Origin: Spirochaetia bacterium
GTDB lineage: Bacteria > Spirochaetota > Spirochaetia > CADAEX01
Direction of reading: 5' to 3'
NCBI GenBank assembly: GCA_963662265.2
Contig: CAXXHA010000010.1
Location: 128,001 to 192,000, forward strand
DNA length: 64,000 nucleotides
Shown: piece after piece, positions 34,743 through 57,018 of the stretch
Layout: the number at the start of each line of letters is the position of its first letter
Position numbering within the stretch: position 1 is the stretch's first letter
Notes under the pieces: model-generated
What the model saw: the letters and a program-made list of their open reading frames with translations, nothing else
Database searches by the model: none
Told to the model about the DNA's origin: nothing
Program-made: the position numbers and the translations under genes

Positions 34743-35543
34743 CTATAACGGGCTCTTCACCCTCTTTGATACAGGGTCTGCAAGGTTTATATAGATCATT
34801 GTTGTCTTGACCGATTTATGCCCCAGAAGATCCTTAACTGTCTTGATATCAATCCCGGCCTCTATCAGGTGCGTGGCGAAACAATGCCTGAGAGTATGGC
34901 AGGTTGCACTTTTCTGAATCAAACTCTTATTGAGAGCATTCTCGAATATTTTCTGGACCGTCCTTACAGAATATTTCTTCCCTGAAATTGTCCTGAAAAC
35001 ATAATCAGAAGCATTTCTCCCTGCAGTAAGCTGTCTTAAAGATTCTGAATACTTTTCCGAAAGAAGAGTAATCCTGTCCTTGTTCCCCTTGGAATCCCTT
35101 ATCTTAAGCGATAAGTCATTGAAATTAATATCCCTTATTTTTATTCTGCAGACCTCACTCACACGGAGACCGCTGCCGTAAAGAAGGGAGATAATAAGCT
35201 GATGCTTTTTGTTCTCAATATTTCCTAGAAGCTTAAGGACCTCCTCCCTTGAAAGAATATCGGGAAGCCTTTTCCTTGTTCTTACCCTGTCAAGCTTATA
35301 AGGACAGGGCTTGTCCAGTACAAGAGTATAAAACAGCTTTATCGCTGACCAGGCAAGCCTTCTCTGCTCACTCGAACTCTCTTCATTTTCAAGAAAAAGA
35401 GCAATCCTCCTTTCAGGATCAAAATCAGTTTTCCGGGAATATTCAAGAAAATGCTTCAGATGACCCGTATAAATCCTTACAGTATTTTTCGAATAATTCC
35501 GGTTCTTAAGCTCCCTTGTAAAATCTTCAAGATAATTTTTCAT
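34743..35543 (-). CDS. Tyrosine recombinase, IntI-like but lacking the IntI-specific insertion (putative integron integrase)
   Basis: RNYSKNT N-terminal SAM-like domain, RLPDILS, LLYGSGLRVSE, SKGNKDR, HTLRHCFATHL, LLGH, TTMIY, C-terminal KSPL. All catalytic residues R-K-H-R-H-Y present. ATG 35543 has a G-rich RBS. Confidence 0.9.
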   Translation of the reverse strand: MKNYLEDFTRELKNRNYSKNTVRIYTGHLKHFLEYSRKTDFDPERRIALFLENEESSSEQRRLAWSAIKLFYTLVLDKPCPYKLDRVRTRKRLPDILSREEVLKLLGNIENKKHQLIISLLYGSGLRVSEVCRIKIRDINFNDLSLKIRDSKGNKDRITLLSEKYSESLRQLTAGRNASDYVFRTISGKKYSVRTVQKIFENALNKSLIQKSATCHTLRHCFATHLIEAGIDIKTVKDLLGHKSVKTTMIYINLADPVSKRVKSPL

Positions 35544-35590
35544 GAAAAACGACCCCCTAGTATGTATAACAAGGGAAAAAGTAATTCTGC

Positions 35591-35619
35591 TTGAATTATA
35601 CACCCGCAGACTTTAAAAT
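35591..35619 (+). promoter_or_regulatory. Pc-like sigma70 promoter facing the cassette array
   Basis: TTGAAT-17 bp-TAAAAT, 25 bp upstream of the attI core. Confidence 0.55.
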
Positions 35620-35650
35620 TATCATGCAATACAGACAATTATAGTTATCG
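35619..35650 (+). other. attI-like site (repeat copy 2 plus core G/TTATCG, crossover between 35644 and 35645)
   Basis: First GTT of the array with no upstream attC arm. GTTATCG..TGACAGGC is complementary to the end of cassette 1 (GCCTGTCA..CGATAAC). Confidence 0.75.
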
Positions 35651-35866
35651 TAAATGACAGGCCTTTGGAAATTTAGAAAGTCATTGATTCTTGACTTCTT
35701 TCTTCATGGCAAGGAACACAGCTGTATAAATTCAATTGTGAATTATGATGCTAATTATTGAAATATTAAGAATAGTTAAAATGCCGAGAATTAAATTTGA
35801 AGAAGCCATGAAGAAATTCTGACTTACATTGATTTGTAGATCTTGAAGCCTGTCACTCCCGATAAC
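35645..35866 (+). other. ORF-less cassette 1 body
   Basis: About 220 bp with no ORF of 60 aa or more; ends form a long imperfect inverted repeat including TTTCTTCATGGC/GCCATGAAGAAA. Confidence 0.7.
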
Positions 35867-36029
35867 AGAGAATACCCGGTTCAGGCATAAGTAGTAAAAA
35901 GTATAGGGCTTAACTGCCGTTCACCCAAAATGTCGGAGCTTTTCTTGTTGCGTGTAAAATCTGGTAGGTATATGATTATTTTAATACGTGGAGAATCCGA
36001 CATCTTCGGATATTCTCAGAACGTTAAGT
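35860..36029 (+). repeat. attC-like site 1 (long type, 170 bp)
   Basis: CGATAAC-A-GAGAATACCCG...CGGATATTCTC-AGAAC-GTTAAGT; closely similar to 37032-37202 and 45660-45827. Confidence 0.9.
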
Positions 36030-36098
36030 GCAATTCTTTGCTTAATATATTTTTTCCTCGCCATCCATGGCTCGGATTTAGAAAAGGAGTATTTCAAA

Positions 36099-36965
36099 AT
36101 GAAAAAAATTATTATTTATTGTTTAGCACTGTTTTTATTATTTTCATGTGCTAATAATGAATTTAATGTAGAACTTGGTATTGATGCAAACTTCATTGAG
36201 AATGATTTAAAAATTACAGGATCAACAAATCTTCCGGATGGTGCAATGATTTCATTAAATCTTAAACCACTATATGAAGAAGAAGTTTCTATTAAAGATG
36301 GAAAAATTGAACATACATTCTCTTTTAATGGAGATGCTATACCTGATGGAGATTATACACTAGAAGCAATATTTATTCCTACTCAAAACGAATCACCAAA
36401 ATTAAAAAATATGATTCTAATTGAAAATGAAAATGTATATGAAAAAGATGGAATAAAATATTATTATATCGGAAATAATTTTAATATAAACAAAGTAGTT
36501 AAAAATAAAGAGCTAAAAAATTTAATAAACAGAAAAGTTCCATATGAAAAATGGAATGATTGGGGAAATCCTGAAACTCTTGAACAAACTAACAATATTT
36601 TTTGGGCAGCATATCTCGAGAAAGCTGATATTTCTTTTATATCAAAAAAAGAGAATGATAAAATCATTTTTGCATGTAGAGGAAAAGAAAAACTAGAAAA
36701 ATATTTTACTGATCGTCAAAATAATATTGAAATTGGATTTTCTCTTTGGGATGGTTCGCATAAAAAACTTACAGAATTAATCAAACAAAGTATGAATGAC
36801 GCAAAAAGTTATGAACATGTTAAAACTGTTTACTGGGATAAAGGAGATCATTTAATAGTTAAAACAGATTTTAGGGGTGCAAATGTTTTTGGAGGTATCG
36901 TCTTAGATTCTGTTACTGCTAAGACATCTATTGATGGTGAGATCTTAGAAATAATTTCAGATTAA
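36099..36965 (+). CDS. Hypothetical lipoprotein (cassette 2)
   Basis: AAGGAG RBS; MKKIIIYCLALFLLFSC lipobox; C-terminal FRGANVFGG motif. Confidence 0.75.
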   Translation: MKKIIIYCLALFLLFSCANNEFNVELGIDANFIENDLKITGSTNLPDGAMISLNLKPLYEEEVSIKDGKIEHTFSFNGDAIPDGDYTLEAIFIPTQNESPKLKNMILIENENVYEKDGIKYYYIGNNFNINKVVKNKELKNLINRKVPYEKWNDWGNPETLEQTNNIFWAAYLEKADISFISKKENDKIIFACRGKEKLEKYFTDRQNNIEIGFSLWDGSHKKLTELIKQSMNDAKSYEHVKTVYWDKGDHLIVKTDFRGANVFGGIVLDSVTAKTSIDGEILEIISD

Positions 36966-37031
36966 TTTTTTACTGCCAGAAAGTACATCCCTGTACTTTC
37001 TGGAATTTATTAAAATTCAGCAAAGAACAGC

Positions 37032-37202
37032 ACTTAACAGAGAATACCACGGTTCAGGCTTAAGCAGTAGAAGCATGTAGCAAAACAGCCGTTCACCCAA
37101 AATGTCGGGACTTTTTATTGTTGCAGGTGGAATCTGTTGGGTATAAGATTAATTAAATATCTGGAGCATCCGACATCTTCGGGTATTCTCAGAACGTTAT
37201 GT
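37032..37202 (+). repeat. attC-like site 2 (long type, 171 bp)
   Basis: ACTTAAC-A-GAGAATACC...GGTATTCTC-AGAAC-GTTATGT. Confidence 0.9.
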
Positions 37203-37431
37203 ACAATGAGCCCGACAAGAGGAAGACGCCCGGACCTCCGGCCGACGGGCGAAGAGATAATATATATATGTTATATCGAAAGAAGGAGTAAAAATGAGAT
37301 TGAAGGCATTAATATTAGAGAACTTCCGAGGCTATTCTGGAGTAAATTTAATTAATTTTGAAAAAGACTGGAAATGGCAAGTCATTTTCCCCACATTTAG
37401 GAAATTAAAAATCCCCCACCTGCAGAAAAAA

Positions 37432-38172
37432 TTATACCCCCTTTTTCTCCTGAATTCTATATGAATCTCCCTCAAGGGAGAAAACATGCGCATGATGTAA
37501 AAGCCTATCAAGCATTGCTGTTGTCATGATTTCATCACCCATCATTTCAGACCACTGATCAAAACCTTTATTTGAAGTAATTATTACTGACGATCTTTCA
37601 TAGAGTTCGCTGATAAGATTAAAAAAAAGATTGGCCTCTTTTCTGTCGATAGGCGTATAGCCTATTTCATCAATAATTAGTAACGAAGATCTGAGAATCC
37701 TGTTTATTCTGAATGAACTTGATCTCATAGTTTCCATTGTTTTCAACAGTTTTATTAGTGAAGTTATCCTTTCAAAACAGACAGTGTATCCGGCTTCAAT
37801 TGCCTTGTACCCGAGAGCAATTGATAGATGTGTTTTCCCAAGGCCGGGAGGTCCAAAGAACATGATATTTTCAGATTTATCTATCCACCTGAAATCCTTG
37901 AGATTATTTAACTGTTCTTCAGTTATCCCTTTTATTCTTGAAAAATTGAATGTCTCAAGTTCCTTAATTACAGGAAAATGGGCACCTGTAAGATTTCTAT
38001 GAAGACGTCTTTCATTTCTGAAATGTACTTCTTCTGTAAGAAGGATGCTTAAAAAATCAAGATGAGATATTTTCTCCTTTGTTGCTTTTTCAAGTGCCTC
38101 ATCAAGATTAACAGATATTCCTTTAAGCTTTAGACTATCAAGTATTCCTGTACAGTAATCAAAACAGCTCAT
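37432..38172 (-). CDS. istB: IS21 helper ATPase
   Basis: GPPGLGKTHL, LLIIDEIGY, ITSN, AMLDRLLHH. Confidence 0.95.
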   Translation of the reverse strand: MSCFDYCTGILDSLKLKGISVNLDEALEKATKEKISHLDFLSILLTEEVHFRNERRLHRNLTGAHFPVIKELETFNFSRIKGITEEQLNNLKDFRWIDKSENIMFFGPPGLGKTHLSIALGYKAIEAGYTVCFERITSLIKLLKTMETMRSSSFRINRILRSSLLIIDEIGYTPIDRKEANLFFNLISELYERSSVIITSNKGFDQWSEMMGDEIMTTAMLDRLLHHAHVFSLEGDSYRIQEKKGV

Positions 38173-39731
38173 AAAGCACCTCCTAAAAGACTTACAAGTG
38201 AGGTGTAGTAACTTAAATCCCTTTTCTTTACTTCTATGTTTTTATTCTCATGTTTTACAGCTTTTATTCCTGTAAGAAGCTGTGGCAGAATATCCGGATA
38301 ATTTTCAGTTTCACAGCTTCTTACATAAAGATAAGACTCTTCAAAATTCCTTGCAGATAGTGTTCCGTTTTCAATGCATAAATCTGCAGTTTTTGCTATT
38401 AACTTATCATCAGGATTTGAGTTTATGAAAGCATAAAGCTCGCGCTGCTGATCTCTGTAATACCTGCTGTATTTTTTGTAATTCTGATCAACATATTGTT
38501 TCCATGAGTTACTGCTAAATCTGTTCTTTAATTTTTTGATAACTTCATCGGGCTTGGAATCATAATTCCTGAAATGATTATGTTTGGTTATTTTTTTCCC
38601 CTTTATCGGTGAGATTTTGTGCCTGGCAATCTCTTCTCCATCTATTTTGTCATAGATAAAAAGGTCTGTATCTGTTTGGTAAATCCAGACAGTTTTTTTT
38701 CTGAACCTGTTAGGGACAGAGTAAAATGAAGATGAAACACTTATCAATGATTTACTATTTACTTCCCTTGATTCTTTATTTATGATGCTTTCCCTTCTGA
38801 AAATAGACGGCTTTAATTTTTTAAAATGTGGAATCTCTTTAAGCAAAGCTTCTTGAGGAATTATTCCAGTTGCCTGGCATATTTTACCGTTAGCTCTTCT
38901 TGAAAGCCAATTATTTAATGCCTCCTGTATTTGATCAAAGGATGTGAAATGTCTTGCTGAAAAGAAACTGCTTTTGATGAATTTCACAAAGTTTTCGACT
39001 TTACCTTTGCTCTCAGGGTCTGCTTTTCTGCAGACATACATCTTAAACCCCTGCTCATCCTTGAAGGCTTTAAATTCTTTTGTATACTTAATATCTCCGC
39101 TGTTTTCTTTAACAACCATGACTTTGTCCTGATCAATCACGATTTCTTCAGGTACCCCTCCTATTATTTCAAAGGTATCAAGTAAATGATTTATCACATC
39201 TATGGATTTAAACGGCCTCTTCTGTACTGCTGCATACTTGAATCTGCTTACAGATAGAATGACTCCAAAGATATATACTTTCTCACCGGTTTCTATTTCA
39301 GTTTCTCCGAAATCAAGCTGTAGTTGTTTTCCATGTGGAAGTTCTTCAACCGGTGTATAGATTCTCTTGTATTCGTAATTATCTACTTCTCCTGTTTTCT
39401 TTAAGAAAATGAGATAATTTCTCAAAGTCCTTTCAGTGCCGGGAAGTTCTCCATATTTTTCTTCAAGAACATCATAGATTGATGAAGTGTATATTTTATT
39501 GTTATTTAAATTAAAAATATTCAGTATTTCATCTTTGAAAGGAGCAAAAATCTTTTCCTTTTCTACACTGTTTATCTGGTATTCAAGATACTCTGCTTCC
39601 GACATTTCAAAGTATTTTCTAACTGTTTTTCTGTCGATTTTTAATTCTCTGGATATTTTCCTTTTTGAATATCCTCTATTCTTGAAAACTCTTATTTTTT
39701 GGTACATATTCATAGTAATCATTTGAGTCAT
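38169..39731 (-). CDS. istA: IS21 transposase
   Basis: N-terminal HTH, QLDFG, GGVPEEIVIDQ, PESKGKVEN. Confidence 0.95.
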   Translation of the reverse strand: MTQMITMNMYQKIRVFKNRGYSKRKISRELKIDRKTVRKYFEMSEAEYLEYQINSVEKEKIFAPFKDEILNIFNLNNNKIYTSSIYDVLEEKYGELPGTERTLRNYLIFLKKTGEVDNYEYKRIYTPVEELPHGKQLQLDFGETEIETGEKVYIFGVILSVSRFKYAAVQKRPFKSIDVINHLLDTFEIIGGVPEEIVIDQDKVMVVKENSGDIKYTKEFKAFKDEQGFKMYVCRKADPESKGKVENFVKFIKSSFFSARHFTSFDQIQEALNNWLSRRANGKICQATGIIPQEALLKEIPHFKKLKPSIFRRESIINKESREVNSKSLISVSSSFYSVPNRFRKKTVWIYQTDTDLFIYDKIDGEEIARHKISPIKGKKITKHNHFRNYDSKPDEVIKKLKNRFSSNSWKQYVDQNYKKYSRYYRDQQRELYAFINSNPDDKLIAKTADLCIENGTLSARNFEESYLYVRSCETENYPDILPQLLTGIKAVKHENKNIEVKKRDLSYYTSLVSLLGGAL

Positions 39732-41717
39732 TCCTGGTAGTTTTTGTCGTGATTACATACTAAGGTTTGACTCTTTTTTTTCCTATAGGGTGGGGAATTT
39801 TATTTTCCATCCTATGGGGATTTCATGTTACCATTTCCAAAGACCTAACATCTTTTATAGGAAAGAATGATAGTGGTAAGTCATCAATTCTTGAAGCTCT
39901 TGAGATATTTTTTAATAGTAAAGTTATTAAAATTGATGGTGATGATAAATTTGTACGTTCATTAGAAAATATTGTGAATATTGGTTGTGTTTTTACGGAT
40001 CTTCCAGAAAAAGTCATTATTGATGAAACTAATGAGACATCATTTATAGATGAATATCTTACAAATGAAAATGAGGATTTGGTTGTTTTAAAGAGATTTA
40101 AAATACAGAAAACTGCAAGTAAACCGGAAACATTTATAATAGCAAATCATCCTAGTAAAACTGGTTATGACGACTTACATAGTTTAAAAATCGGCGAATT
40201 AAAGAAGAGAGGAAAAGAATTAGGTATTAAAGATACCGTAGAAGATCAGAGAATTAGTGCTCATTGGAGAAAAGCGATTTGGTCTTCAACTGATAATTTG
40301 GAAATACAAAAATCTGAAATTGAAATTACACAATTAAGCACAGAATCAAAAAAATTATATACAAGAATAAGTGAAGCAATGCCAACATTTGCTCTTTTCC
40401 GATCAGATAGAGAAAGTAGTGACTCTGATCCCGAAGCGAAAGACCCTATGCAATTAGCAGTAAATGAAGCAAAAAAAACTTATGAAGCTCAAATTAATGA
40501 ATTACAAGAGAAAATAGAAAAAAGTGTTTTCGAGGTTGCAGAAAGAACGCTAGAAAAAATGAATGAAATGGATCCTTCTTTAGCTAATGAATTGAACCCA
40601 AGATTAAAAGAAACACCAAAATGGAGTTTTAGTTTTACAATTGATGGTGATGAAAATATTCCAATTAATAAGAGAGGTAGTGGGGTCAGGAGACTTGTTC
40701 TTTTAAATTTCTTTAGAGCAGAAGCTGAAAGAAAGAAAATTCAAAATCATTCTCCTGATGTAATATATGCAATTGAAGAACCTGAAACATCTCAGCATCC
40801 GAATTATCAGCAATTATTGATTGATTCATTGATAGCATTATCACAAAATGATAATTGTCAGGTTTTATTAACAACACATGTTCCAGCATTGGCAGAAAGA
40901 TTAGAAATTAACTCTATTAGATTTATTGAGAAAATCGGATTAGGTGAAATTAAAGTTCATATGCATAATGATTATGTTTTAGAATTAGCTACAGAAAGTT
41001 TAGGGATAATGCCTGAAAAAGAAATATCTTTAGCCAATAAAGTTATATTAGTTGAAGGTCATAGTGATATAACATTTTTGAATAAAATTAGTGAAGAATA
41101 TAAGAATGCGGGAGAAATAACGTCAACATTAAGTGATTCAAAAATATATCCAATACCTATTGGTGGATGCGGGAATCTTAAACATTGGATAACCAAACGC
41201 ATAATAGATAAAATGGGAATAGAATATTTTATTTTAATGGATTCAGATTTAGGAGATCCAGTAAATAATTCTAGAAACATTACTAAAATAAATGAAATTA
41301 ATACAAATGGTCAAATCGGATATTTAACAAATAAACGAGAACCTGAGAACTATATTGATCCAGATTTATTGAAAACAAAGTATGATAAAGATATTAGATA
41401 CACTAACACTTGTGATGCGAAAAAAATAATTGGAAAAGAATTAACAATTAGACCAAATGATGTTCTTGAGTTTATATGGCCACATATGGAATATCAGCAT
41501 ATGAAAAAAATGGCGAAATATGGTGATAAAGATGAATTCAAAGAGTGGATGGATGCGTTCTTAGAATAATGATAATATGAATATTCTAGCTAAGAAGATT
41601 ATAATGGTGAAGAATCCAAACCTCTGAAATAAAGACAAATAGAGAATGTAATTACTTTTTACAAATAGTATTGCTGACGATATTTTTAAGAATAGCTTAA
41701 ATATCTGGTAGAATACG

Positions 41718-41746
41718 TTCAATAACAATTAAATAAATGGTATAAT
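41718..41746 (+). promoter_or_regulatory. Internal sigma70 promoter for the methyltransferase (probably leaderless mRNA)
   Basis: TTCAAT-17-TATAAT with extended TGn; ATGs 3 and 6 nt downstream of the -10. Confidence 0.5.
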
Positions 41747-41749
41747 TTT

Positions 41750-43546
41750 ATGATGGAAACGAGTCTTTCAGTTCTTATTGAAGATTTATCAGTCTCAGCA
41801 AAGAAATATGAAAATGAATATAACGATGATGAGATGCTTACATTTGCTATTTCATTTTGTCAGAGATTAATATCAACATATTGGCAGATTAATATCTCTG
41901 ATACAAAATATTCAATTACTCCGTATAATTCTGAGCTATATGGATATCTGAAAGGGCAACCAATAATTATTGCTGATCAAATCGCACAGTTATTATCTGC
42001 AATGCCAAATAAGGATGCTGGTTTCTTTATTGGAAATATTTATACATCATTACTTCCGAAGAATGTCAGGTCAAAAAACGGCGCTTATTACACACCTCCA
42101 ATACTCGTACAAAGATTATTAACATCTATTGATAACTATAGATTTGATTGGATTAATAGTAAAATATTGGATCCTTCATGTGGTGGAGCTGCATTTCTTA
42201 CAAGTATATCCAGATTTATTATTGAAAAATATAAACATGAATTATCAGCAGATGATTTATTTTCCTTTATTGAAAAAAACATACAAGGGTATGAAATTGA
42301 TCCTTTTGCAGCATGGATCTCACAAACATTGTTGGAATTTGAATTATATGATCTATATCTCAAAGTAAATAAAAGAATAAAAAAAATCATTTCTGTAACT
42401 AATTCCCTTGAGGAAAATTACGACAAGAATTTTGACCTTATCATAGGAAATCCCCCTTATGGAAAAGTAACAATTGAAAAAAACTTAAGAGAGAAATTCA
42501 GTAATAGCGTATATGGACATGCCAATCTTTATGGATTATTTACAGATTTAGCATTAAATCTTTTAAATGAAAATGGATATATAGCCTATGTTACTCCAAC
42601 TTCGTTTTTGGGTGGAAATTATTTTAAGAATTTAAGAAAACTTTTAGGAGAAAATTCTCCTTTAGTTTCTATTGATTTCATAAAAGATAGAAGTGGCGTT
42701 TTTAGTGATGTTCTTCAAGAAACAGCACTAGCAATATATAAAAAATCAAAATTTGTAAAAAAAGTTGAAATATCTGAATTATCAACTACAAAAAATCTTG
42801 ATTCCTTATCAATTATAAAAATTGGAAGTTTGCTAGTTAATCAAAATACAGAAAAACCCTGGCTTATTCCAAGAGAAAAAGATCAATTATCGTTATATAA
42901 GAATATTTCTTCCTTCGAGTATACTTTACGGGACTATGGATTTAAGGTCCGTACTGGACAACTTGTATGGAACAGACACAAGGAACAATTATCAAGTTCA
43001 AAAAGAAACTCTTATCCTTTAATATGGGCCGAATCCATATTAAGAAATGGAAATTTTGAATTTAAATATACAAAGAAGAATCATTTCCCATACTTTAAAT
43101 TGGAAAGAAAACAAAATTATTTACTCACAAATAAAGAATGTATTATATTACAGCGAACAACATCTAAAGAACAAAGTAGAAGATTAATATCTTCAATACT
43201 TCCAAATGAATTTATTAGTCAATATGGTGGTGTAGTTATTGAAAACCATATTAATATTATAGAACAGAATGAAGAAACAGTTTTAGATTTAGTTACACTT
43301 AATATCTTGTTAAATTCAATAGCAATAGATAGAATTTTTCGTTGTATTAATGGCAGTGTAGCCGTTTCTGCTTATGAGTTAAATTCAATACCATTTCCAT
43401 CCCCAGAAAAGATTTTGAATCTAAAAAAATTCTTAATTAAAAATGATAAACGAAGCTCAATAGAAGAATATATTCTAGATATTTATGGAGGCAATATTGA
43501 TGAGTCAACTTCCTACAGTTCAATCGATACAAGACAAACTGGATAA
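41750..43546 (+). CDS. N6-adenine DNA methyltransferase (BsuBI/PstI/Eco57I-like, gamma class)
   Basis: GAYYTP, LDPSCGGAAFL, IIGNPPY, TRD with LQRTTSKEQSRRL. Confidence 0.92.
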   Translation: MMETSLSVLIEDLSVSAKKYENEYNDDEMLTFAISFCQRLISTYWQINISDTKYSITPYNSELYGYLKGQPIIIADQIAQLLSAMPNKDAGFFIGNIYTSLLPKNVRSKNGAYYTPPILVQRLLTSIDNYRFDWINSKILDPSCGGAAFLTSISRFIIEKYKHELSADDLFSFIEKNIQGYEIDPFAAWISQTLLEFELYDLYLKVNKRIKKIISVTNSLEENYDKNFDLIIGNPPYGKVTIEKNLREKFSNSVYGHANLYGLFTDLALNLLNENGYIAYVTPTSFLGGNYFKNLRKLLGENSPLVSIDFIKDRSGVFSDVLQETALAIYKKSKFVKKVEISELSTTKNLDSLSIIKIGSLLVNQNTEKPWLIPREKDQLSLYKNISSFEYTLRDYGFKVRTGQLVWNRHKEQLSSSKRNSYPLIWAESILRNGNFEFKYTKKNHFPYFKLERKQNYLLTNKECIILQRTTSKEQSRRLISSILPNEFISQYGGVVIENHINIIEQNEETVLDLVTLNILLNSIAIDRIFRCINGSVAVSAYELNSIPFPSPEKILNLKKFLIKNDKRSSIEEYILDIYGGNIDESTSYSSIDTRQTG

Positions 43547-44582
43547 AATATTTCCTCAGGGTTTAGAAAACAGAGGTTATTTGACTCGAGAAATGGCTGC
43601 CAAGACAATATTTGTTATGATTTATTCAACAGCAGTTGAAGGAACAGATATTTGGATTAGACCTGATCAAATTACAAAAATGACTGATAAGCAAGCAGCC
43701 ATTACCGATATTGATAAAAGAGAAGAATGGTATGAAATGACACTTCGTCCTGGAGCTATGAAGGATATTAAAGATCGATGGTATGCTGCAAATACAAGAG
43801 AACCTATTAGAGATGAAACATTAAGATACGGTCTGATAGTGTATAATGCGGTAATAGAGCGCGCAGGTTTACCTACAACATCTTCAAAACCAAGATATGC
43901 TCTACAACGGGAATTCTATGAATTATTTATGGTTGACGAAAATGCAGATGATTTTATTAAAAATTGGCAAGATAAATATTTATCTGCTGAATCATTAGCT
44001 CGGGTAAAATTATTAGGTCAATCAAAACAATCAAAAACTAATAATGAAAATATTTTGATTGATCTGCCAGATGGTCAGAGAAGAAAAATGCTTCCTGGAC
44101 CAAGTTCATTTCTTACAAAAGCAACTGTAGAATTATTCTGTAAATCTTTTTTAAAAAATCCCGTTGTAATTTTCATTAGTGAATCAGGGAATAAAGTAGT
44201 ACTTAAAGATGATGAATTAGCAAAATCAATTGGATTTAATATTCCAGCGGAAAAAAGTTTACCAGATCTGATAATCGCTGATCTTACTGATGACAATACG
44301 CTAATATATTTTATTGAAATAGTTGCAACAGACGGCCCAATTAACAGAAAAAGAAAAGATGATTTGCTGAAAATTGTAGCTGAATCTTCATTTAAAAGAG
44401 AGAATGTATTTTTTATGACGGTATTTGAAGATAGGAATTCAGCACCCTTTAAGAAAAATATATCTTCGATAGCACCAAATACACTTATTTGGTTTGCCTC
44501 AGAACCTGAATTTATAATGATCTGGAATTCTTTAAAAAATTATAAAATTGCAGATATGTCTAGTTTCATAAATGAAACATAA
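43500..44582 (+). CDS. BsuBI/PstI family type II restriction endonuclease
   Basis: WYAANTREPIRDETLR, LPDLII..FIEIVATDGPI (PD-(D/E)xK type); overlaps the MTase end. Confidence 0.9.
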   Translation: MSQLPTVQSIQDKLDKIFPQGLENRGYLTREMAAKTIFVMIYSTAVEGTDIWIRPDQITKMTDKQAAITDIDKREEWYEMTLRPGAMKDIKDRWYAANTREPIRDETLRYGLIVYNAVIERAGLPTTSSKPRYALQREFYELFMVDENADDFIKNWQDKYLSAESLARVKLLGQSKQSKTNNENILIDLPDGQRRKMLPGPSSFLTKATVELFCKSFLKNPVVIFISESGNKVVLKDDELAKSIGFNIPAEKSLPDLIIADLTDDNTLIYFIEIVATDGPINRKRKDDLLKIVAESSFKRENVFFMTVFEDRNSAPFKKNISSIAPNTLIWFASEPEFIMIWNSLKNYKIADMSSFINET

Positions 44583-44677
44583 AAAATAGTTTCAGTAGTC
44601 TTGGCTATTTTTTTTAAAGTATAAATGAAGAATCCAGACCTAACTCCGTTGAACGGTCTGGATGTCGGGCTCAAAGC

Positions 44678-44759
44678 ACATAACAGCGAATATGCGGTTT
44701 CGCTTCGCTTTACCCAAACTGGCCTTTGGCCAGCTTCGCATATTCGCGGAACGTTATGA
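44678..44759 (+). repeat. attC-like site 3 (short type, 82 bp)
   Basis: ACATAAC-A-GCGAATATGCG...CGCATATTCGC-GGAAC-GTTATGA, perfect 11-bp stem. Confidence 0.9.
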
Positions 44760-44834
44760 ATAATTCCTGACCAAGAAGAGACCTTTATACTCGCCATCCA
44801 TGGCTCGTGAAGAAATAGAAAATCTTATATTGTA

Positions 44835-45164
44835 TTAAACACTTAGTATTTTATGATCTTCCAGAATATTACCATCCATTTCTAACAACTGCAAAAATCT
44901 AGAAGCTGGTCCTTGAGGTTTGTTTCTACCGGATTCCCAGGCTTCAACCGTTTTTACAGATACACCAAGTGCTTCTGCGAAAATAGTCTGTGATAAATTC
45001 AATGATAACCGGATTTGTTTTATTTTGGATGCATCATATTTTGGAATTGGAGAAATACTGACTTTCCTTCTTTTTACTGAAGGTAATTTACCTTTACTAT
45101 ATTCAAGAGATTCATTGAGTCCGGAGATAATTGAGTTATAATAATTTTTATCATCGTTTTTCAT
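44835..45164 (-). CDS. HigA-like HTH antitoxin
   Basis: IRLSLNLSQTIFAEALGVSVKTVEAWESGRNKP. Confidence 0.9.
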   Translation of the reverse strand: MKNDDKNYYNSIISGLNESLEYSKGKLPSVKRRKVSISPIPKYDASKIKQIRLSLNLSQTIFAEALGVSVKTVEAWESGRNKPQGPASRFLQLLEMDGNILEDHKILSV

Positions 45165-45514
45165 TTCTGCCCTCCGTTCGTACGTAAATTATTCTTAATC
45201 TGATCTATCAAAGACTTAATATTGTTTTTTTCACCTTTCGTAAGACTTTGCTTTTCACTTTTTCTAAAACAGGCAATCATATGAATCTGTTCAAATGATG
45301 CAAAATCAACATATAGTGTTCTTACGCCACCACTTTTACCTTTTCCTGGAACTGACCATCGAAGCTTTCGCAAGCCCCCTGTTCCTTGAATCATTTTTCC
45401 AGCTTCAGGATTCTCACAAAGCAATATCTCAAGATCTTTGAGATCATCATCTGTCAAATTGGCATCTGCCCACTGTTTTTCGAATGTTGGCATATACACA
45501 AATTCTCGTGTCAT
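45161..45514 (-). CDS. RelE/HigB-like toxin
   Basis: NPEAGKMIQGTGGLRKLRW, GKSGGVR; upstream of the antitoxin. Confidence 0.9.
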   Translation of the reverse strand: MTREFVYMPTFEKQWADANLTDDDLKDLEILLCENPEAGKMIQGTGGLRKLRWSVPGKGKSGGVRTLYVDFASFEQIHMIACFRKSEKQSLTKGEKNNIKSLIDQIKNNLRTNGGQK

Positions 45515-45549: not shown

Positions 45550-45659
45550 GAGTTGAAAATACAAATATTCTAACCTTTAGTTATACTTTTACCTTTTACT
45601 GTCTCAAAAGGACTTCCATGTCCTTTTGAGAATGAAATATCTTAATGGTCAGGAACTAT

Positions 45660-45827
45660 ACATAACAGAGAATACCCGGTTCAGGCATAAGCAGTAAAAG
45701 TTCGGGGCTTAACAGCCTTTCACCCAAAATGTCGGAACTTTCTTGTTGCAGGTGGAAACTGGAGGGTATATGATTAATCAAATATCTGAGGCATCCGACA
45801 TCTTCGGGTATTCTCAAAACGTTATGT
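45660..45827 (+). repeat. attC-like site 4 (long type, 168 bp)
   Basis: ACATAAC-A-GAGAATACCCG...CGGGTATTCTC-AAAAC-GTTATGT. Confidence 0.9.
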
Positions 45828-45881
45828 TCAATTTTTGGTCTAAAATATGTTTAAAAGGTAATTATCCAATAAGGAATCATT

Positions 45882-46550
45882 ATGGTAAAAGAAATGTACT
45901 TGGAATTAACAGGCGTCAATGGAAGACAAATTCAAAATACATATTGGTCTAATGTTGATAATCCATCAAAGATTGTCATTTTCTTTTCCGGTTATCGATA
46001 TCCTACTGAAGCCCCATTATTTCATTTTCTAAAAATACATTTTTTATCAAAAAATTGGGCAGTTTTAACTCTAGATTATAGGTATAATGAAGATTCAGTT
46101 TTTTTGAAGTTATCTGACCCTGAACAAATGAATTATTTGAATACTGAAGCTTTACTTATGAAAAAAAAATTAGAAGAAAATCTTAATTTCGAGCAGTATT
46201 GCTTTATTGCGAAATCTCTTGGCACAACCATTCTATATAAAATGTTAGAAAATGATTTTATTTTCATGAAAGATTTAAAGAATCAATTTGTATGGCTTAC
46301 TCCTGCAGAGTCTAATAGGAAGATATCTGATTTTATTTTAAAAAATACAATTTCTTCGATTTATGTGATTGGAGATGATGATCCATATTATGATGAGGAC
46401 ATCATTTCAAAATTAAGAGATAATTCTTCTTGCTTATGTACAATTGTTTCTGATGCAGGGCATATCTTTAATCATAAAGAAAATCTAGACTTAACCATGC
46501 AGAATAATTTTAATGTCATTAGGTATCTAATTGAGAAGATTAATGTTTAA
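45882..46550 (+). CDS. Alpha/beta hydrolase-fold protein (cassette 5)
   Basis: Nucleophile elbow AKSLGT, GDDDP, AGH. Confidence 0.7.
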   Translation: MVKEMYLELTGVNGRQIQNTYWSNVDNPSKIVIFFSGYRYPTEAPLFHFLKIHFLSKNWAVLTLDYRYNEDSVFLKLSDPEQMNYLNTEALLMKKKLEENLNFEQYCFIAKSLGTTILYKMLENDFIFMKDLKNQFVWLTPAESNRKISDFILKNTISSIYVIGDDDPYYDEDIISKLRDNSSCLCTIVSDAGHIFNHKENLDLTMQNNFNVIRYLIEKINV

Positions 46551-46578: not shown

Positions 46579-46593
46579 ACATAACAGCGAATA
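46579..46593 (+). repeat. attC-like site 5, left arm only (cut by IS3)
   Basis: ACATAACAGCGAATA identical to the start of site 3, immediately followed by the IS end. Confidence 0.8.
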
Positions 46594-46650
46594 TGGCATT
46601 CCCCCAAAACTGTAGACACTTGATATACTTAGAAACTAAGGAGTATTAAA

Positions 46651-46938
46651 GTGCCAAAGAGTCCCTACACAGAAGAATTTAAAGACGAAATATTAAAGCA
46701 AATAATGGAAGAAGAACACAGTGTTCTTGAAGTATCAAAAGCAACAGGAATAAGTGACGTTACTCTTTATAACTGGCTTAGAAAGGCCGGGTGGAAATCC
46801 GGGGAGTCTCGAGAAAAGAAAAAATTAACAGAAGCAGAAAAGGAAAACAGAGAATTAAAAGCAGAGATCAGAAAGCTTAAGATGGAGCGTGATATCTTAA
46901 AAAAGGCCGCAGCGTACTTTGCGAAGGAGTCCCAGTAA
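46651..46938 (+). CDS. IS3 OrfA
   Basis: YTEEFK HTH, ERDILKKAAAYF; A6G slippery site at 46899-46905. Confidence 0.92.
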   Translation: MPKSPYTEEFKDEILKQIMEEEHSVLEVSKATGISDVTLYNWLRKAGWKSGESREKKKLTEAEKENRELKAEIRKLKMERDILKKAAAYFAKESQ

Positions 46939-47795
46939 AGTACGCTTTTATTCGGGACAACAGAAAAGCGTTTCCAATTCGCCCTATGTGCAGGATATTA
47001 AAAGTTAATCCATCAGGATTTTATCGGTGGTTAAAAACACCAGAATCTCCTAGAACAATAGAAAATAAAAAAGTGACAGAACTAATCCGTTTTTACTGGG
47101 AAGAAAGCGGTCAAGTATATGGAAGTCCAAATATACATGAGGATCTAAAAGAAGCAGGTTATAGCTACGGTGTTAATCGGGTTGCTCGTTTGATGAGAGT
47201 AGCTGGAATAAAAGGTGCTTACAGACGGAAACGGCATCATGTACCTTGGGTTCCTGGAGAAATTTACCAGAAGAATACTTTGAATAGAGAATTTTCTGTT
47301 GCTGAGCCAAATCAAGCTTGGTGTACTGATATAACATATATCCGAACTTATGAAGGCTGGTTATATCTGGCAGTAGTAATTGATCTATTTAACAGAGGAG
47401 TTGTTGGCTGGTCGATGAAGAATCATCAGAAAGCAATTATTGTTATGGATGCTTTGTTTATGGCAGTAAAAAGAAGAAGACCTACAAAGTCTGTTCTTAT
47501 CCATTCTGATCAAGGGTGTCAGTTTACAAGTAAGGATTGGGAGGATTTTTGTGAGGCCCACTCTTTGGAAATTAGCATGAGTAGAAGAGGTAATTGTTGG
47601 GATAATTCTGTAGTTGAATCATTCTTTTCAAATCTTAAAAGAGAAAGAATCAGGAATAAAATTTATAAAACCAGAGAGGAGGCAAGAAAAGATATTTTTA
47701 ATTATATTGAAATGTTTTACAATACAAAAAGACGGCATGGTCATTTAGGAAAGCGAAGCCCTGCTGATTTTGAAGATAAGTTTTCATCAGATTAA
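46935..47795 (+). CDS. IS3 OrfB (DDE integrase core; expressed as OrfAB by -1 frameshift)
   Basis: WCTDITYI, HSDQGCQF, GNCWDNSVVESFF; the 5' coordinate is approximate. Confidence 0.92.
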   Translation, partial: VKYAFIRDNRKAFPIRPMCRILKVNPSGFYRWLKTPESPRTIENKKVTELIRFYWEESGQVYGSPNIHEDLKEAGYSYGVNRVARLMRVAGIKGAYRRKRHHVPWVPGEIYQKNTLNREFSVAEPNQAWCTDITYIRTYEGWLYLAVVIDLFNRGVVGWSMKNHQKAIIVMDALFMAVKRRRPTKSVLIHSDQGCQFTSKDWEDFCEAHSLEISMSRRGNCWDNSVVESFFSNLKRERIRNKIYKTREEARKDIFNYIEMFYNTKRRHGHLGKRSPADFEDKFSSD

Positions 47796-47822
47796 AGTGT
47801 CTACAGAATCAGGGGAATGCCA

Positions 47823-47984: not shown

Positions 47985-47997
47985 TAGAGGGGGATAT

Positions 47998-48345: not shown

Positions 48346-48420
48346 TGAAAATGTGAAGCCAAAAATATCCATGTATTTGGCAGAGGATATAATCAATAAT
48401 TTCTAAAAACAAAAACTGGG

Positions 48421-48502
48421 TTACAACAAGAAATATACGATTCTGCTTCACTCCAACCAAATACGGAGTTGCCACACTTCGCATATTCCTGAAACGTTAC
48501 AG
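48421..48502 (+). repeat. attC-like site 6 (short type)
   Basis: TTACAAC-A-AGAAATATACGA...TCGCATATTCCT-GAAAC-GTTACAG. Confidence 0.8.
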
Positions 48503-48526
48503 GCAACTACATTCTGAGGAGACTTA

Positions 48527-49078: not shown

Positions 49079-49082
49079 CTTC

Positions 49083-49166
49083 CTATAACAGCGCATGTGC
49101 GGTGCTGCATTCGGCTTTACGCAAATTGGCCTTTGACCAACATCGCATATTCGCAATACGTTGTAC
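49083..49166 (+). repeat. attC-like site 7 (short type)
   Basis: CTATAAC-A-GCGCATGTGCG...CGCATATTCGC-AATAC-GTTGTAC. Confidence 0.8.
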
Positions 49167-49289
49167 ATCATATCAAAATATTATCGTCATTAGCGGCGAT
49201 TAAAGGCAAAAAAGATTTTAAAGAGAAAGGCGATGTTTTTGAAGTAAAAGACATTTCCTGGATAGAAAATATCAGAGGAAAAATATTAT

Positions 49290-49879: not shown

Positions 49880-50028
49880 ATGAGAATTGAAAATGTCAGC
49901 AAAAAAGACTATTCACAGTTAATTGAAATATGGGAAACTTCTGTACGTTCAACTCATGATTTCCTGACTGAAAAGGATATTATATCGTTAAGATCTTTAA
50001 TAATTGATAAATATTTTCCTGCTGTTGA
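49880..50028 (+). pseudogene. Truncated YjaB-like GNAT fused to half an attC
   Basis: IWETSVRSTHDFL N-terminus; the sequence switches to an attC right arm at TTGAC (~50025). Confidence 0.7.
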
Positions 50029-50058
50029 CCAACTTCCCATATTCGTGAAACGTTATAA
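50025..50058 (+). repeat. attC-like site 8, right arm only
   Basis: TTGACCAACTTCCCATATTCGTGAAAC-GTTATAA matches the right arm of site 7. Confidence 0.7.
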
Positions 50059-50095
50059 GCAATTAATAAATTGATTAGTTTAAAGGAGTTCTAAT

Positions 50096-50590: not shown

Positions 50591-50613
50591 TACTCCCAAG
50601 TACTACTGACTGT

Positions 50614-50706
50614 TCATAACAGGGGCTATTTACTCCGCCAAGTCGGGCTTCGTGCTGCACCATTTTTGGCCTAAGCCAAACATCACATAACCCAAGAACG
50701 TTATTG
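50614..50706 (+). repeat. attC-like site 9
   Basis: TCATAAC-AGGGGCTAT...ATAACCCAAGAAC-GTTATTG. Confidence 0.7.
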
Positions 50707-50741
50707 GCAATATCCCTTAAGATCAACATGTGAGGAAGATA

Positions 50742-51647: not shown

Positions 51648-51665
51648 CGGAGACCGGGAGACTAT

Positions 51666-51748
51666 CAAGAACAGTGAATATGTGGTTCAGCATTCAGCAT
51701 CTCCCAAAATGCCGTTGACCAACATCGCATATTTACAAAACATTATAG
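51666..51748 (+). repeat. attC-like site 10, degenerate (GTT changed to ATT)
   Basis: CAAGAAC-A-GTGAATATGTG...CGCATATTTAC-AAAAC-ATTATAG. Confidence 0.7.
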
Positions 51749-51786
51749 TTAATTTTGAATTAAGATTTTAATCAAGGAGTTTTCAT

Positions 51787-52218: not shown

Positions 52219-52243
52219 TAAGCAAACACTTAATTTAAACTTT

Positions 52244-52333
52244 CAAGAACAGACAATATATGATCCGCCCAGCTACGGGCTCGCCAAATCCATTACTTAG
52301 TGCTAGACTTCATATATTTCTTAAACGTTATAT
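52244..52333 (+). repeat. attC-like site 11, degenerate
   Basis: CAAGAAC-AGACAATATATGA...TCATATATTTCTTAAAC-GTTATAT. Confidence 0.7.
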
Positions 52334-52361
52334 CTAATTATATTTTGTAAAGAGAACATAA

Positions 52362-52883
52362 ATGAAACATATAGAAATAAAAGAAATTACTGAAATAGAC
52401 ATCCCTGAAATTGTAGACATTTGGTATGAAGTTTCTCTTCAAGCTCATGGATTTATTTCCAGCGAATATTGGAGAGCGAACAAAGATCAAATGAGTAATA
52501 AATACATACCAATGTCTGAAACATTTCAAGCAACAGATGGTGAAAATATATTAGGATTTATCTCATTATTAGATGATTATCTTGCTGCAATTTTTGTAAA
52601 ATCTGAATTCCAGGGAAGAGGAATTGGATCTTTATTATTAAACCATGCAATGAGTCTTCGCAATAATCTGCAATTAAAAGTATTCTGCAAAAATGCAAAG
52701 AGTATAGAATACTATAAATCAAAAGGTTTTTCTGTAATTTCAGAATCAAAAGATAATGAGACAGGAGAAAATGAGCTTGTCATGAAGTGGCATAAAAAAA
52801 AACTAGACGTAACAAGAAATATGCACAGCCCTACAGGCTTGGCCTTCGCAAATGCAGCGTTGCTTCTCTTTGCATATTTCTGA
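52362..52883 (+). CDS. GNAT acetyltransferase (YiaC-like); ORF reads through attC 12
   Basis: AHGFI, FQGRGIGSLLL; the original stop was probably near 52804 and lost by A-run slippage. Confidence 0.8.
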   Translation: MKHIEIKEITEIDIPEIVDIWYEVSLQAHGFISSEYWRANKDQMSNKYIPMSETFQATDGENILGFISLLDDYLAAIFVKSEFQGRGIGSLLLNHAMSLRNNLQLKVFCKNAKSIEYYKSKGFSVISESKDNETGENELVMKWHKKKLDVTRNMHSPTGLAFANAALLLFAYF

Positions 52884-52893
52884 AACGTTTGGC
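52807..52893 (+). repeat. attC-like site 12 (short type)
   Basis: ACGTAAC-A-AGAAATATGCA...TGCATATTTCT-GAAAC-GTTTGGC, perfect 11-bp stem. Confidence 0.8.
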
Positions 52894-53014
52894 GCAATTT
52901 GTCCCCCAAGAAAAACATTGCCCGGACATCCAGCCAACAGACTAAAATAACACTTCATGATGTGGTAATTAAATTAGCTGGTGAAAAAAACCATTTTTTA
53001 TGAGAAAATAGTTT

Positions 53015-53521: not shown

Positions 53522-53630
53522 GCAACTAGGGTGCTCGATAAACTTAATGTTTTTATAAAGAAGTTTGTTGATCCAGAGATTTAGAATCCAGACCGAACTC
53601 TGTTTAATATTCTGAATGTTGAACCAAAGC

Positions 53631-53745
53631 ATATAAGAGGGGCTATGTCGCATTGCTATAAGCTCACTGGCCTGAGGCATATGGCCTATGTCAAAATTTC
53701 TGCGCAGTAACTCCGGGAACTTAGCATATTCTTGAACCGTTAAAT
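53631..53745 (+). repeat. attC-like site 13, degenerate
   Basis: ATATAAG-AGGGGCTATG...CATATTCTTGAACC-GTTAAAT. Confidence 0.55.
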
Positions 53746-53785
53746 ACATTACAATTTGTTTAATAACACCTTAAAGAGGACAATA

Positions 53786-54820: not shown

Positions 54821-54828
54821 AAAACTTC

Positions 54829-54926
54829 TCTTAACAGCAAATATGCACTTCATCATTCAGCTTCTCTTAAAAACAGCAATTTGCCGGCTTTGCAGTAAAT
54901 ATAGCATTCCAACTAAAACTTTATAT
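54829..54926 (+). repeat. attC-like relic
   Basis: TCTTAAC-A-GCAAATATGCA left arm is recognisable; right arm eroded. Confidence 0.5.
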
Positions 54927-55044
54927 AATAAAATTTAAAATAAGAAGGAAACACTGTGGCCTAGAGGAAATAAGAGAGATTTACAGGCAAAAGCTGTTTG
55001 CTCAAATGTTTTTTTACAAGTATTATTGAAAAAAGGAAAAAGTA

Positions 55045-55488: not shown

Positions 55489-55560
55489 ATATCTGCGGCT
55501 AATAAAAATCTTTCCGCATCCTTTAATAGGAAGGTAAGAAATACACGTCAGGAGTAAATT

Positions 55561-56073
55561 ATGTATAATCATTCAATTCCGTATAAGAAAAAAGGATTAT
55601 ATATCCTGATTACATTGCCGCTTATTCTGGTTTATATATTAATAGGATATTATTTAAACAATATAGGTAATATTAATCTCATCATTTATATCACTTTATT
55701 TACTATAACAATTATTTTTCAGAGTTATAATTGTATATATTGGAAATGTCCACATGTTGGAACTCTTTGCCCAGGCGCCGGCGGTTTTTGTGTACTATCA
55801 AGTCCTATTGGAAAATTATTAATTAATATGAAAATAAAGAGTTCTGAGAAATTATATAAAATACTCTGCAGCATTGCTTTTACAGGTTTTTTGGGGATAA
55901 TTTTATATCCGGTCTATTTCATATATAAATTAAGTATTTTATATCTAGCTTTTTATTTTTTTATAATTTCAGCTTATTTCTTGTTTATGATGATATTGAT
56001 CTGTCCTGACTGCGGAGCTAAAAAAGCATGCCCGGGAGGACAATTTTCATTAAAAATAAAAAAACAATGTTGA
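55561..56073 (+). CDS. Hypothetical 4-TM protein with paired Cys motifs
   Basis: CxxxxCPHxGxxCPG and CPxC....CPG motifs following TM pairs. Confidence 0.65.
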   Translation: MYNHSIPYKKKGLYILITLPLILVYILIGYYLNNIGNINLIIYITLFTITIIFQSYNCIYWKCPHVGTLCPGAGGFCVLSSPIGKLLINMKIKSSEKLYKILCSIAFTGFLGIILYPVYFIYKLSILYLAFYFFIISAYFLFMMILICPDCGAKKACPGGQFSLKIKKQC

Positions 56074-56242
56074 AACAGTTTAATAAGGAAAGTTCAGATA
56101 AATATTTTACCGGAACAAAACTAATGGAGCCTGGATTATTGTGATAAGAAAGGAATTATAAAGCTAAGGCAGATATTCGGATGAACACAAGGTAAACAGG
56201 ATTCATACATCAGGACTCATAAAATGATAAAGGAAAATATTT

Positions 56243-56743
56243 GTGGTTGAAAAATTTGCAATACCAGGTGTAGGCGGAATAATAAGAAAATATAATAATA
56301 ATTCGCAGGAATATATTCTTGTTCAGGACAGAGTAAAACCGAATTATGAAAACATGAAAGGAATCATTGAAATCCCCGCAGGAAAAATAAGAGAATTTGA
56401 AAATATCTATTCTTGTTTAAGAAGAGAAATTTATGAAGAAACCGGCTTGAGTGTTGAAGAAATTGATGGTGAGGACTTATCAGAAATTATAAAAATCAAT
56501 AATTATGAAGTCCTGTCATATGAACCTTATTCCAGCAGTCAGAATATATCTGGAGATTATCCGATCTTAGTACAGGTATTTTTATGTACTGTTAATGACG
56601 GAAAAGACCCGATTAAAGAAAGTGATGAGTCGAAAAATATTCGATGGATAACGAAAGAAGAATTAAAGAGACTACTGCTTGAAGAGATAGATAGTTTCTT
56701 TCCAATGCATATATCTACTTTGAAAAAATATTGTGGAATATAA
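56243..56743 (+). CDS. NUDIX hydrolase
   Basis: PAGKIREFENIYSCLRREIYEETGL Nudix box. Confidence 0.9.
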   Translation: MVEKFAIPGVGGIIRKYNNNSQEYILVQDRVKPNYENMKGIIEIPAGKIREFENIYSCLRREIYEETGLSVEEIDGEDLSEIIKINNYEVLSYEPYSSSQNISGDYPILVQVFLCTVNDGKDPIKESDESKNIRWITKEELKRLLLEEIDSFFPMHISTLKKYCGI

Positions 56744-56796
56744 CAACAACAAAATAATTCCATGTTTTTTATTTAAAAAGGAGTGTTGGTTAATAA

Positions 56797-56934
56797 ATGC
56801 TTGAATGGAAAGATCCTTTAGGATTACGGGGCTGCGGCTTTTTCCATATCTTAAATGATAAAATAATTTTTCAGAGAGGTTATTGGGATAAGCTCAGTTT
56901 TTTAAAAGTACATAATTTGCCGATCCCAGAATAG
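56797..56934 (+). pseudogene. Duplicated 3' fragment of the SnoaL-like gene
   Basis: 56800-56934 is nearly identical to 54686-54820. Confidence 0.85.
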
Positions 56935-56939
56935 TTTTT

Positions 56940-57018
56940 TTTCAACAAATATGCAGTTCAGCTTTTCGCTTCACCTGAACTGGATGTTGGTAAATAAGCA
57001 TTTATGAGAAACATTGGG
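56940..57018 (+). repeat. attC-like relic
   Basis: CAACAAATATGCAGTTCAGC...GCATTTATGAGAAAC-ATTGGGT, resembling the short-type sites. Confidence 0.5.

Follow-up and report, generated by a model that had tools for sequence, protein, structure and literature searches.

A cassette array in a Spirochaetia bacterium headed by a short XerA-like tyrosine recombinase: a candidate integron branch without the I2 insertion

Integron integrases are defined in the field by the possession of the I2 insertion, and this report concerns a cassette array headed by a tyrosine recombinase that does not have it. The array lies within a 64,000-nt stretch of contig CAXXHA010000010.1 of a Spirochaetia bacterium (this whole stretch is termed the window, its numbering is used throughout, and the genome to which it belongs is G000), where a gene at 34743..35543 on the - strand encodes a short XerA/IntI-like recombinase of 266 aa (P0001), the putative array integrase. 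Divergent from this gene run about 15 attC-bounded cassettes, which end near 57024 and within which the G+C content falls to 28-34%. The locus looks like a separate, overlooked integron branch, and its most probable explanation, as judged from sequence comparison, is that of a sedentary chromosomal integron of a distinct lineage whose integrase would be an I2-less, XerA-like recombinase. A distinct integron class with an insertion-less integrase had been proposed in an earlier note on this DNA, and the proposal gains support from the arrays found beside homologues, the linkage of recombinase and site type, the attI crossover evidence and the tree. The parts of this reading that are supported directly are the anatomy of the locus, the covarying stems of its sites, the G|TT cassette boundaries, the linkage between recombinase and site type, and purifying selection.

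The recombinase itself appears intact. The minus-strand open reading frame (ORF) at 34743-35603 would give 286 aa from a GTG, and the ATG at 35543, which yields the 266-aa form, fits the homologues, which are 265-266 aa long and share the same start. A profile search returned the expected PF00589 match at 4e-40, and alignment of 80 relatives shows R127, K152, H216, R219, H242 and Y251 to be invariant or nearly so, such that the protein has a tyrosine recombinase catalytic domain with the R-K-H-R-H-Y residues of IntI, as had been claimed. The AlphaFold (AF2) model has a pLDDT of 89.6 and finds its top structural match in 2a3v (VchIntIA; TM 0.80), with archaeal XerA structures next, while the top sequence match in the PDB is 4a8e (3.3e-39). 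Members of the family are annotated in their sources merely as generic recombinases or as XerD. The motifs of the IntI-like termini described earlier are present, but KSPL and others of them also occur in archaeal XerA-like proteins and are therefore not specific to IntI.

Several independent comparisons agree on the absence of the insertion. The TIGR02249 model of IntI aligns to P0001 in two stretches and scores 205.4 bits against a curated cut-off of 265; the VchIntIA chain of 2a3v likewise aligns as two pieces, with about 55 chain residues skipped, and BLASTP against the genome's own IntI gives 34% identity and requires 43 gap positions, so that no gap-free alignment to IntI was obtained. 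The distance from KxxKxR to HxLRH is 58-60 residues in the short forms (58 in P0001) versus about 100 in IntI. In the AF2 model no helix stands at the place of the insertion, and what links the beta hairpin to the HxxR helix is a single helix plus short strands; thus the additional domain specific to IntI (the I2 helix), near patch III, is missing, as the earlier note had it.

Where, then, does the protein belong? An 86-protein tree, built by a quick search with SH-aLRT as the sole support measure, with the insertion columns removed and rooted on bacterial Xer-like proteins, places IntI in one clade (100) and the short family of spirochaetes in another (96) outside it. P0001 thus falls outside the IntI clade and is therefore not a truncated IntI. 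IntI, the spirochaete short family, the short forms of other phyla and the archaeal XerA-like proteins together make a clade (100) apart from bacterial Xer. Against the archaeal XerA model NF040815, P0001 reaches 206.5 bits, just under the cut-off of 220, which is passed by seven of the ten short-form relatives scanned (the exceptions being L014, L016 and L044). The length of 265-266 aa is kept down to 45% identity. Comparison with the ortholog in G011, a genome of the same genus, gives a dN of 0.114 and, with dS saturated, a ratio of about 0.04; on this comparison the short family is under purifying selection.

Fundamental to the interpretation are the sites that bound the cassettes, which are + strand intergenic repeats folding into imperfect hairpins. 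General-purpose finders of attC sites, which rely on AAC/GTT pairing and folding energy, were dropped, since at strict settings they recovered only two window sites and at loose settings gave as many matches outside the array as inside it. A covariance model (R1) made from seven window sites only returns 12 + strand sites between 35858 and 57024, to which three can be added by eye, at 46579-46593 (cut by an insertion sequence, IS), about 53617-53747 and about 54830-54920 (both degenerate); the 13 or more cassettes first estimated have therefore become about 15. In the genome scan R1 missed long sites with its default filters, and a run with filters off was used, followed by a broader model (R2) of 16 sites from five genomes, run over 91 sources comprising 1.07 Mb.

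The architecture of the window sites, labelled type A, is consistent. Their L stem pairs ungapped, with 93.7% pairing over 42 distinct sites, and nine of its 11 pairs covary, the observed covariation score being reached by none of 500 shuffles; an independent 16-site alignment gives 88% pairing with eight of 11 pairs covarying. The central spacer is lopsided, with 1-2 nt on the 5' arm against 5-6 nt on the 3' arm, the latter mostly ending in AAC, and the R pairing extends over about 20 nt, the flank of R'' pairing there with the first letters of the same cassette, and a single mismatch recurs about 11 nt from the crossover. The same genome also holds a canonical system on contig C8, complete at locus L009 1747-18863, whose IntI scores 383.6 bits with TIGR02249, has the insertion, and is 406 aa long, about 90 aa of this being an N-terminal extension. 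Its array, which includes several duplicated cassettes, comprises 14 sites on the strand diverging from IntI; their spacers are 5/5-nt and their L'' has an additional G. These canonical-layout sites (type B) have extrahelical R''-L'' bases and a two-sided spacer, which type A sites do not have. Bouvier et al. 2009 describe three features as shared by all known attC substrates: extrahelical R''-L'' bases, a central spacer left unpaired and a terminal structure that varies.

That the site type goes with the short recombinase is seen from homologous loci. R1 finds matches directly upstream of, and divergent from, the homologue in G011 (82% identity), L013 (53%), L014 (45%), L016 (43%; a metagenome-assembled genome, or MAG, of Marispirochaeta) and L022 (40%), so that, with the window, all six spirochaete-clade loci that have upstream DNA show type A arrays. 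R2 gives 24 matches in seven loci, namely four of the R1 loci together with L023 and L030 (labelled Gammaproteobacteria MAGs) and L017 (Patescibacteria), and all are at short-form genes, upstream and on the divergent strand; it gives none in a control set of 53 long-form IntI loci, defined by a protein with long motif spacing or IntI-like length, and none on the C8 canonical integron. The expectation that homologues would flank similar arrays is thereby borne out, homologues of 40-82% identity heading the same site type. Whole-genome scans place the main type A array as running from the short gene in G011 (3281525-3299901), G419 (5012045-5030582) and G420 (2487878-2502897), genomes in which 240-640 kb separate the canonical intI from any type A site. 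Two small MAGs also have a short-form gene with upstream repeats, either R2 matches (G421) or paired half-sites (G422). The short-form gene lies less than 250 nt from the start of its contig in eight of 27 short-form loci, positions that would fit assembly breaks in repeats, although this is only suggestive.

The junction between gene and array has the layout of an integron, with the putative integrase gene adjoining attI and the cassettes reading away from it. The attI-like site occupies 35620..35646 on the + strand, and its crossover, inferred from conservation with G011 and from strain contigs, is G|TT at 35644|35645; the GTT noticed earlier is thus located. G000 and G011 are about 80% alike over some 100 nt upstream of the gene, promoter-like hexamers included, and diverge past TAG|TT. 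The Pc-like promoter that had been described is a weaker case: one -35/-10 pair pointing toward the array (35591..35619, + strand) is kept in the orthologous locus of G011 and is a Pc candidate, but the number of promoter-like matches in the intergenic region, four against 3.4 +/- 1.9 expected, is not above chance.

A number of observations indicate that cassettes move as units with a crossover at the G|TT of the R' box. For instance, a 2,066-bp cassette, 99.76% identical, lies between two attC sites in G011 and stands first at attI beside the short gene in G420, its identity starting in both genomes at the TT after G and ending within the R' box. Two further cases are a 1,567-bp cassette that is 99.5% identical between contig C5 of G000 and G011, and the toxin-antitoxin cassette, which is 95% identical between the window and the G011 array and lies at a different position there. 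Logan contigs X4 and X5, from another study, match 33901-35646 with two differences and continue with 254-374 letters unlike the window, and therefore the break falls right after the G-TT at 35644-35646. Their read joints with sides of 20-34 letters, which lie in repeated attC or leader sequence, and their thin or absent cover over 35647-44680 were not used as evidence. The R'' box of the first cassette exactly complements the letters past the attI G|TT in G000 (7/7), L014 (9/9) and L016 (9/9), and across six arrays the R'' flank complements the start of its own cassette better than that of the next in 29 of 36 cases, with the reverse in four and ties in three. Read from the sequence, this complementarity is the footprint of circular intermediates. 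In the G011 array there are also runs of cassettes of about 434 nt with near-identical attC sites (L099 2625-3928 and 12626-13061), pointing to tandem cassette duplication.

How might such a system operate? In the mechanism proposed here the 266-aa XerA-like, I2-less recombinase would be the cognate integrase, inserting circular cassettes at the attI-like site by its own gene through a G|TT crossover and excising them between type A attC sites, while the intergenic promoter would read into the array. Type A sites would fold to a hairpin resembling a Xer core site, in which a central region of 5-6 nt versus 1-2 nt lies between a long R arm and an uninterrupted L arm of 11-13 bp. It would then be this central asymmetry, and not extrahelical bases read by I2, that marks the folded form and the strand, and it would also block a second strand exchange. 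Catalysis by P0001 is an inference, as is a folded single-stranded substrate, for which the covarying stems and the complementarity of cassette ends speak only indirectly.

A wider form of the model is that an old and broad XerA-like, I2-less group runs integron-like arrays in Spirochaetota and, more loosely, in Patescibacteria and others, with asymmetry placed in the central spacer, canonical IntI as one derived branch, and many integrase-less clusters having an integrase that goes unrecognised. This we put forward tentatively, as a possibility that falls a little short of an even chance.

The main rival explanation is that the array is an integrase-less cluster served in trans by the canonical IntI, the short recombinase being a neighbour with some other role. 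It is unlikely, though several of the points that weigh against the cognate role of P0001 speak for it. A canonical intI elsewhere in the genome, named beforehand as a possible source of the recombination, is indeed present on C8; canonical IntI is found in G000 and in five of the 10 other genomes checked (G010, G011, G063, G419 and G420), canonical IntIs are reported (PMC2095811) to recombine varied attC sites, and type A sites could be served in trans by such an enzyme. Type A clusters also exist that have no short gene adjoining them, both on contig C5 of G000, where a second cluster has no recombinase, and in G011, G419 and G420. Another genome of the genus, G010, has no P0001 ortholog at the syntenic site, where a type A array of 42 kb nevertheless stands, and therefore the array persists without P0001. 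The G010 array may be served by another recombinase, a 341-aa, N-extended XerA-like protein lying two genes away and co-oriented (L152, which is G010:C1:3236000-3244000, at 4120-5145); this second kind of XerA-like recombinase, 44-46% identical to L096/L097/L104 and seen also in G312:C15, lies near type A arrays and is co-oriented with them. The chromosomal flank at 30202-34660 (lnt, radical SAM, HPRT-like and cupin genes) is syntenic in G010, as compared with L152, and thus the array occupies a fixed chromosomal site within the genus.

Other reservations are of a more general kind. Because the genomes compared are related, the counts made across them are not independent, and the deep nodes of the tree are poorly resolved, with its quick search and SH-aLRT values. 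Outside the spirochaetes the link is partial: L020, L026 and L044 have clear arrays, those of L017, L023 and L030 are sparse, no upstream repeats were seen in L019, L021, L033 and L081, and L034, L048, L049, L051 and L077 gave no match in the R2 scan, the only one applied to them. The array of L044 (3782-9085, a Parcubacteria MAG) consists of covarying half-sites separated by 440-737 nt, each interval holding an ORF, and is not readable as compact attC. Together with L020 (229-4733, a Firmicutes MAG) it forms a set of arrays whose covarying half-sites, 225-737 nt apart, are unlike compact attC. Finally, deletion of the insertion abolishes the function of IntI1 according to eLife 2020 (Escudero et al. 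2020).

What tells against service in trans includes the partition of the sites. The canonical IntI of G000 heads its own array of a different attC architecture, and type A sites occur at none of the 53 canonical-IntI loci and beside no canonical intI in the four genomes scanned whole. Across homologues of 40% to 82% identity the short gene stays in place and divergent, and next to it lies a conserved attI-like site with cassette joining, attI being reported specific to its cognate integrase (PMC2095811). No canonical IntI was found in five genomes that are fragmented assemblies or MAGs (G086, G123, G418, G421 and G422), and in G421 and G422, both small MAGs, there was no TIGR02249 match above cut-off.

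That P0001 might be a housekeeping recombinase of the Xer/XerA type, resolving dimers and standing beside the array by chance, is highly improbable. The idea is prompted by its score so near the XerA cut-off, by the relatives in other phyla that pass it, and by the small archaeal genomes, which carry one XerA-like gene each. The short family is nonetheless present in just seven of 401 sampled genomes of the phylum (E <= 1e-55), with a close ortholog in one of 19 other genomes of the order, and G000 has a separate XerD-like gene on contig C11 (283 bits); given this patchy distribution and the separate gene, P0001 is probably not housekeeping and the candidate was set aside, the array adjacency in all six clade loci being in any case unexpected for a dif recombinase. 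The remaining alternative, a decayed relic of canonical IntI after loss of the insertion, heading a frozen array, can point to degenerate distal attC sites, to the two IS elements and truncated cassettes in the array and to the inactivation of IntI1 by insertion loss (eLife 2020), yet is very unlikely in view of the length and catalytic residues kept in 80 relatives, the dN/dS of about 0.04, and the near-identical cassette at attI in another genus and the near-identical strain breaking at attI, which argue for recent traffic. The mere 34% identity of P0001 to the resident IntI and its position outside the IntI clade also tell against the relic, and on these grounds a deletion derivative of that IntI was rejected. 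The reading of P0001 as the cognate, I2-less integrase is accordingly the one we retain.

The array of this putative integron is typical of chromosomal integrons in its content, which includes five GNAT acetyltransferases, a toxin-antitoxin pair, a defence cassette, an isochorismatase, an EamA transporter and DUF1697, flavodoxin-like and NUDIX proteins; no Rfam family matched in a search of 33000-59000. All features that follow are on the + strand unless stated. The first cassette (35647..36023), with no ORF above 35 aa, ends in attC 1 (35858..36034, long type A) and is followed by a lipoprotein-like cassette ORF with no Pfam family (36096..36965) and attC 2 (37030..37207, long type A). The large defence cassette (37208..44675) carries an OLD-family ATPase/TOPRIM gene in two parts (37294-37464 and 39767-41569), an Eco57I/N6-type methylase (41750-43546) and a BsuBI/PstI-type endonuclease (43485-44582), and is followed by attC 3 (44676..44764, short type A). 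The OLD-family gene is split by an IS21-family insertion on the - strand (37369..39839; istA 38169-39731, istB 37432-38172), whose limits were set from a 97.7% identical copy on C5. Next come a reversed toxin-antitoxin cassette (44835..45514, - strand), with a RelE-family toxin at 45161-45514 and a helix-turn-helix (HTH) antitoxin at 44835-45164, then attC 4 (45658..45832, long type A) and a 222-aa cassette ORF with no Pfam family (45882..46550). Of attC 5 only the 5' stub is recognised by eye (46579..46593), the site having been cut by an IS3-family insertion (46594..47822) with 28-nt terminal inverted repeats and a 99.9% identical copy on C5; the near-identical copies of both IS elements lie in the C5 cluster (L011).

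Beyond this insertion come the following cassettes, each named here with the site that follows it: a TfoX_N-like ORF (47956-48345) and a gene fragment with attC 6 (48419..48507); a GNAT cassette (48527-49078) with attC 7 (49081..49171); DUF1697 (49290-49829) and a truncated GNAT ORF (49880-50074) with the 3' half of attC 8 (49996..50063); the isochorismatase cassette (50096-50590) with attC 9 (50612..50711); the EamA transporter cassette (50730-51647) with attC 10 (51664..51753), in which R' is ATT; and two GNAT cassettes, at 51787-52218 with attC 11 (52242..52338) and at 52362-52883 with attC 12 (52805..52898). The flavodoxin-like cassette (53015-53521) precedes attC 13 (53617..53747), and a GNAT gene (53756-54235) with a 70-aa fragment precedes another site at 54830..54920, both of these sites being degenerate and recognised by eye only. 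A further GNAT gene (55045-55488), a membrane ORF (55561-56073) and a NUDIX gene (56243-56743) lead to the last recognisable attC (56938..57024; 27.8 bits, R' = ATT), with which the array ends. Positions 54682-54820 and 56796-56934 are direct duplicates of 139 nt, 95% alike, each taking in the last part of a small ORF just ahead of one of two degenerate attC sites; this is probably a copied cassette end. Separately, several unrelated cassettes begin, just past the crossover, with a conserved leader of some 60 nt that has a G+C-rich hairpin, in the window (37196-37266), in L011 (three copies), in L152 and in L016/L099; it matches no Rfam family and may be a regulatory RNA or a promoter element carried by the cassette.

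One consequence of these findings relates to how such loci are recorded. CALIN is the term for an attC cluster without an integron integrase, and a PF00589 protein without an intI_Cterm match does not count as IntI (Cury et al. 2016), so that under the published IntegronFinder rule the window array would be filed as a CALIN. The label applies formally because no insertion-bearing protein adjoins, no protein with both PF00589 and intI_Cterm being nearby, and it hides the conserved adjacent recombinase. Ghaly et al. likewise used the additional domain to select IntIs. Where a pipeline requires the insertion, such elements would be filed as integrase-less clusters, and active cassette platforms would be under-counted in environmental bacteria, possibly including candidate phyla. 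Full-text searches turned up no account of arrays headed by an integrase without the insertion, although the supplements of Cury et al. 2016, a list of recombinases near attC sites that have no intI_Cterm, may include family members.

A second consequence relates to the insertion itself. Acquisition of I2 is held to have enabled single-strand recombination, direct proof being lacking since its deletion kills IntI1 and no ancestor is at hand (Escudero et al. 2020). A natural I2-less relative tied to arrays of hairpin sites offers a testable subject for the role of I2. Can a Xer-like enzyme run an integron, choose the strand and avoid exchanging strands a second time? If the wider form of the model is true, hairpin-site cassette arrays did not need the I2 insertion to arise.

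Among known systems the closest in anatomy are the canonical integrons, such as the chromosomal integron of V. cholerae with its VchIntIA. Common to both are (i) an integrase gene divergent from attI and from one-way promoterless cassettes, (ii) an imperfect inverted repeat with AAC...GTT boxes ending each cassette, (iii) a G|TT crossover, an R'' matching the start of its own cassette and GNAT, toxin-antitoxin and defence content, and (iv) the structure of the recombinase, for which 2a3v at TM 0.80 is the best match. P0001 differs in lacking the insertion of about 40 residues, in falling below the TIGR02249 cut-off and in lying outside the IntI clade, and the window sites differ in having neither the extra R''-L'' bases nor the two-sided spacer of canonical attC (as set out in Bouvier et al. 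2009). Instead they have a spacer of 1-2 versus 5-6 nt and an R stem of about 20 bp with one recurrent mismatch.

XerA, represented by NF040815 and the structures 4a8e and 5hxy, is described as the dif recombinase of archaea. It shares with P0001 its size, domain layout, lack of the insertion, C-terminal SPL(D) and membership of the large clade, whereas P0001 is accessory, patchy in distribution, tied to cassette arrays and just below the XerA cut-off. In CTX-phi, a Xer-type enzyme without I2 uses a hairpin mimicking a core site and exchanges strands only once, and this is a precedent for an I2-less enzyme acting on such a mimic; the phage, by contrast, integrates at dif through the host XerCD, and has neither a dedicated recombinase with its own attI nor a cassette array. 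Xer recombination of folded single-stranded phage DNA, of this CTX-phi type of IMEX, is mentioned in eLife 2020. The recombinases without the IntI-specific region in Cury et al. 2016 were scattered in the tree, stood beside fewer than three attC sites and were judged not to be IntI, whereas the family described here is conserved and, in several genomes, stands at the head of arrays with 12 or more sites.

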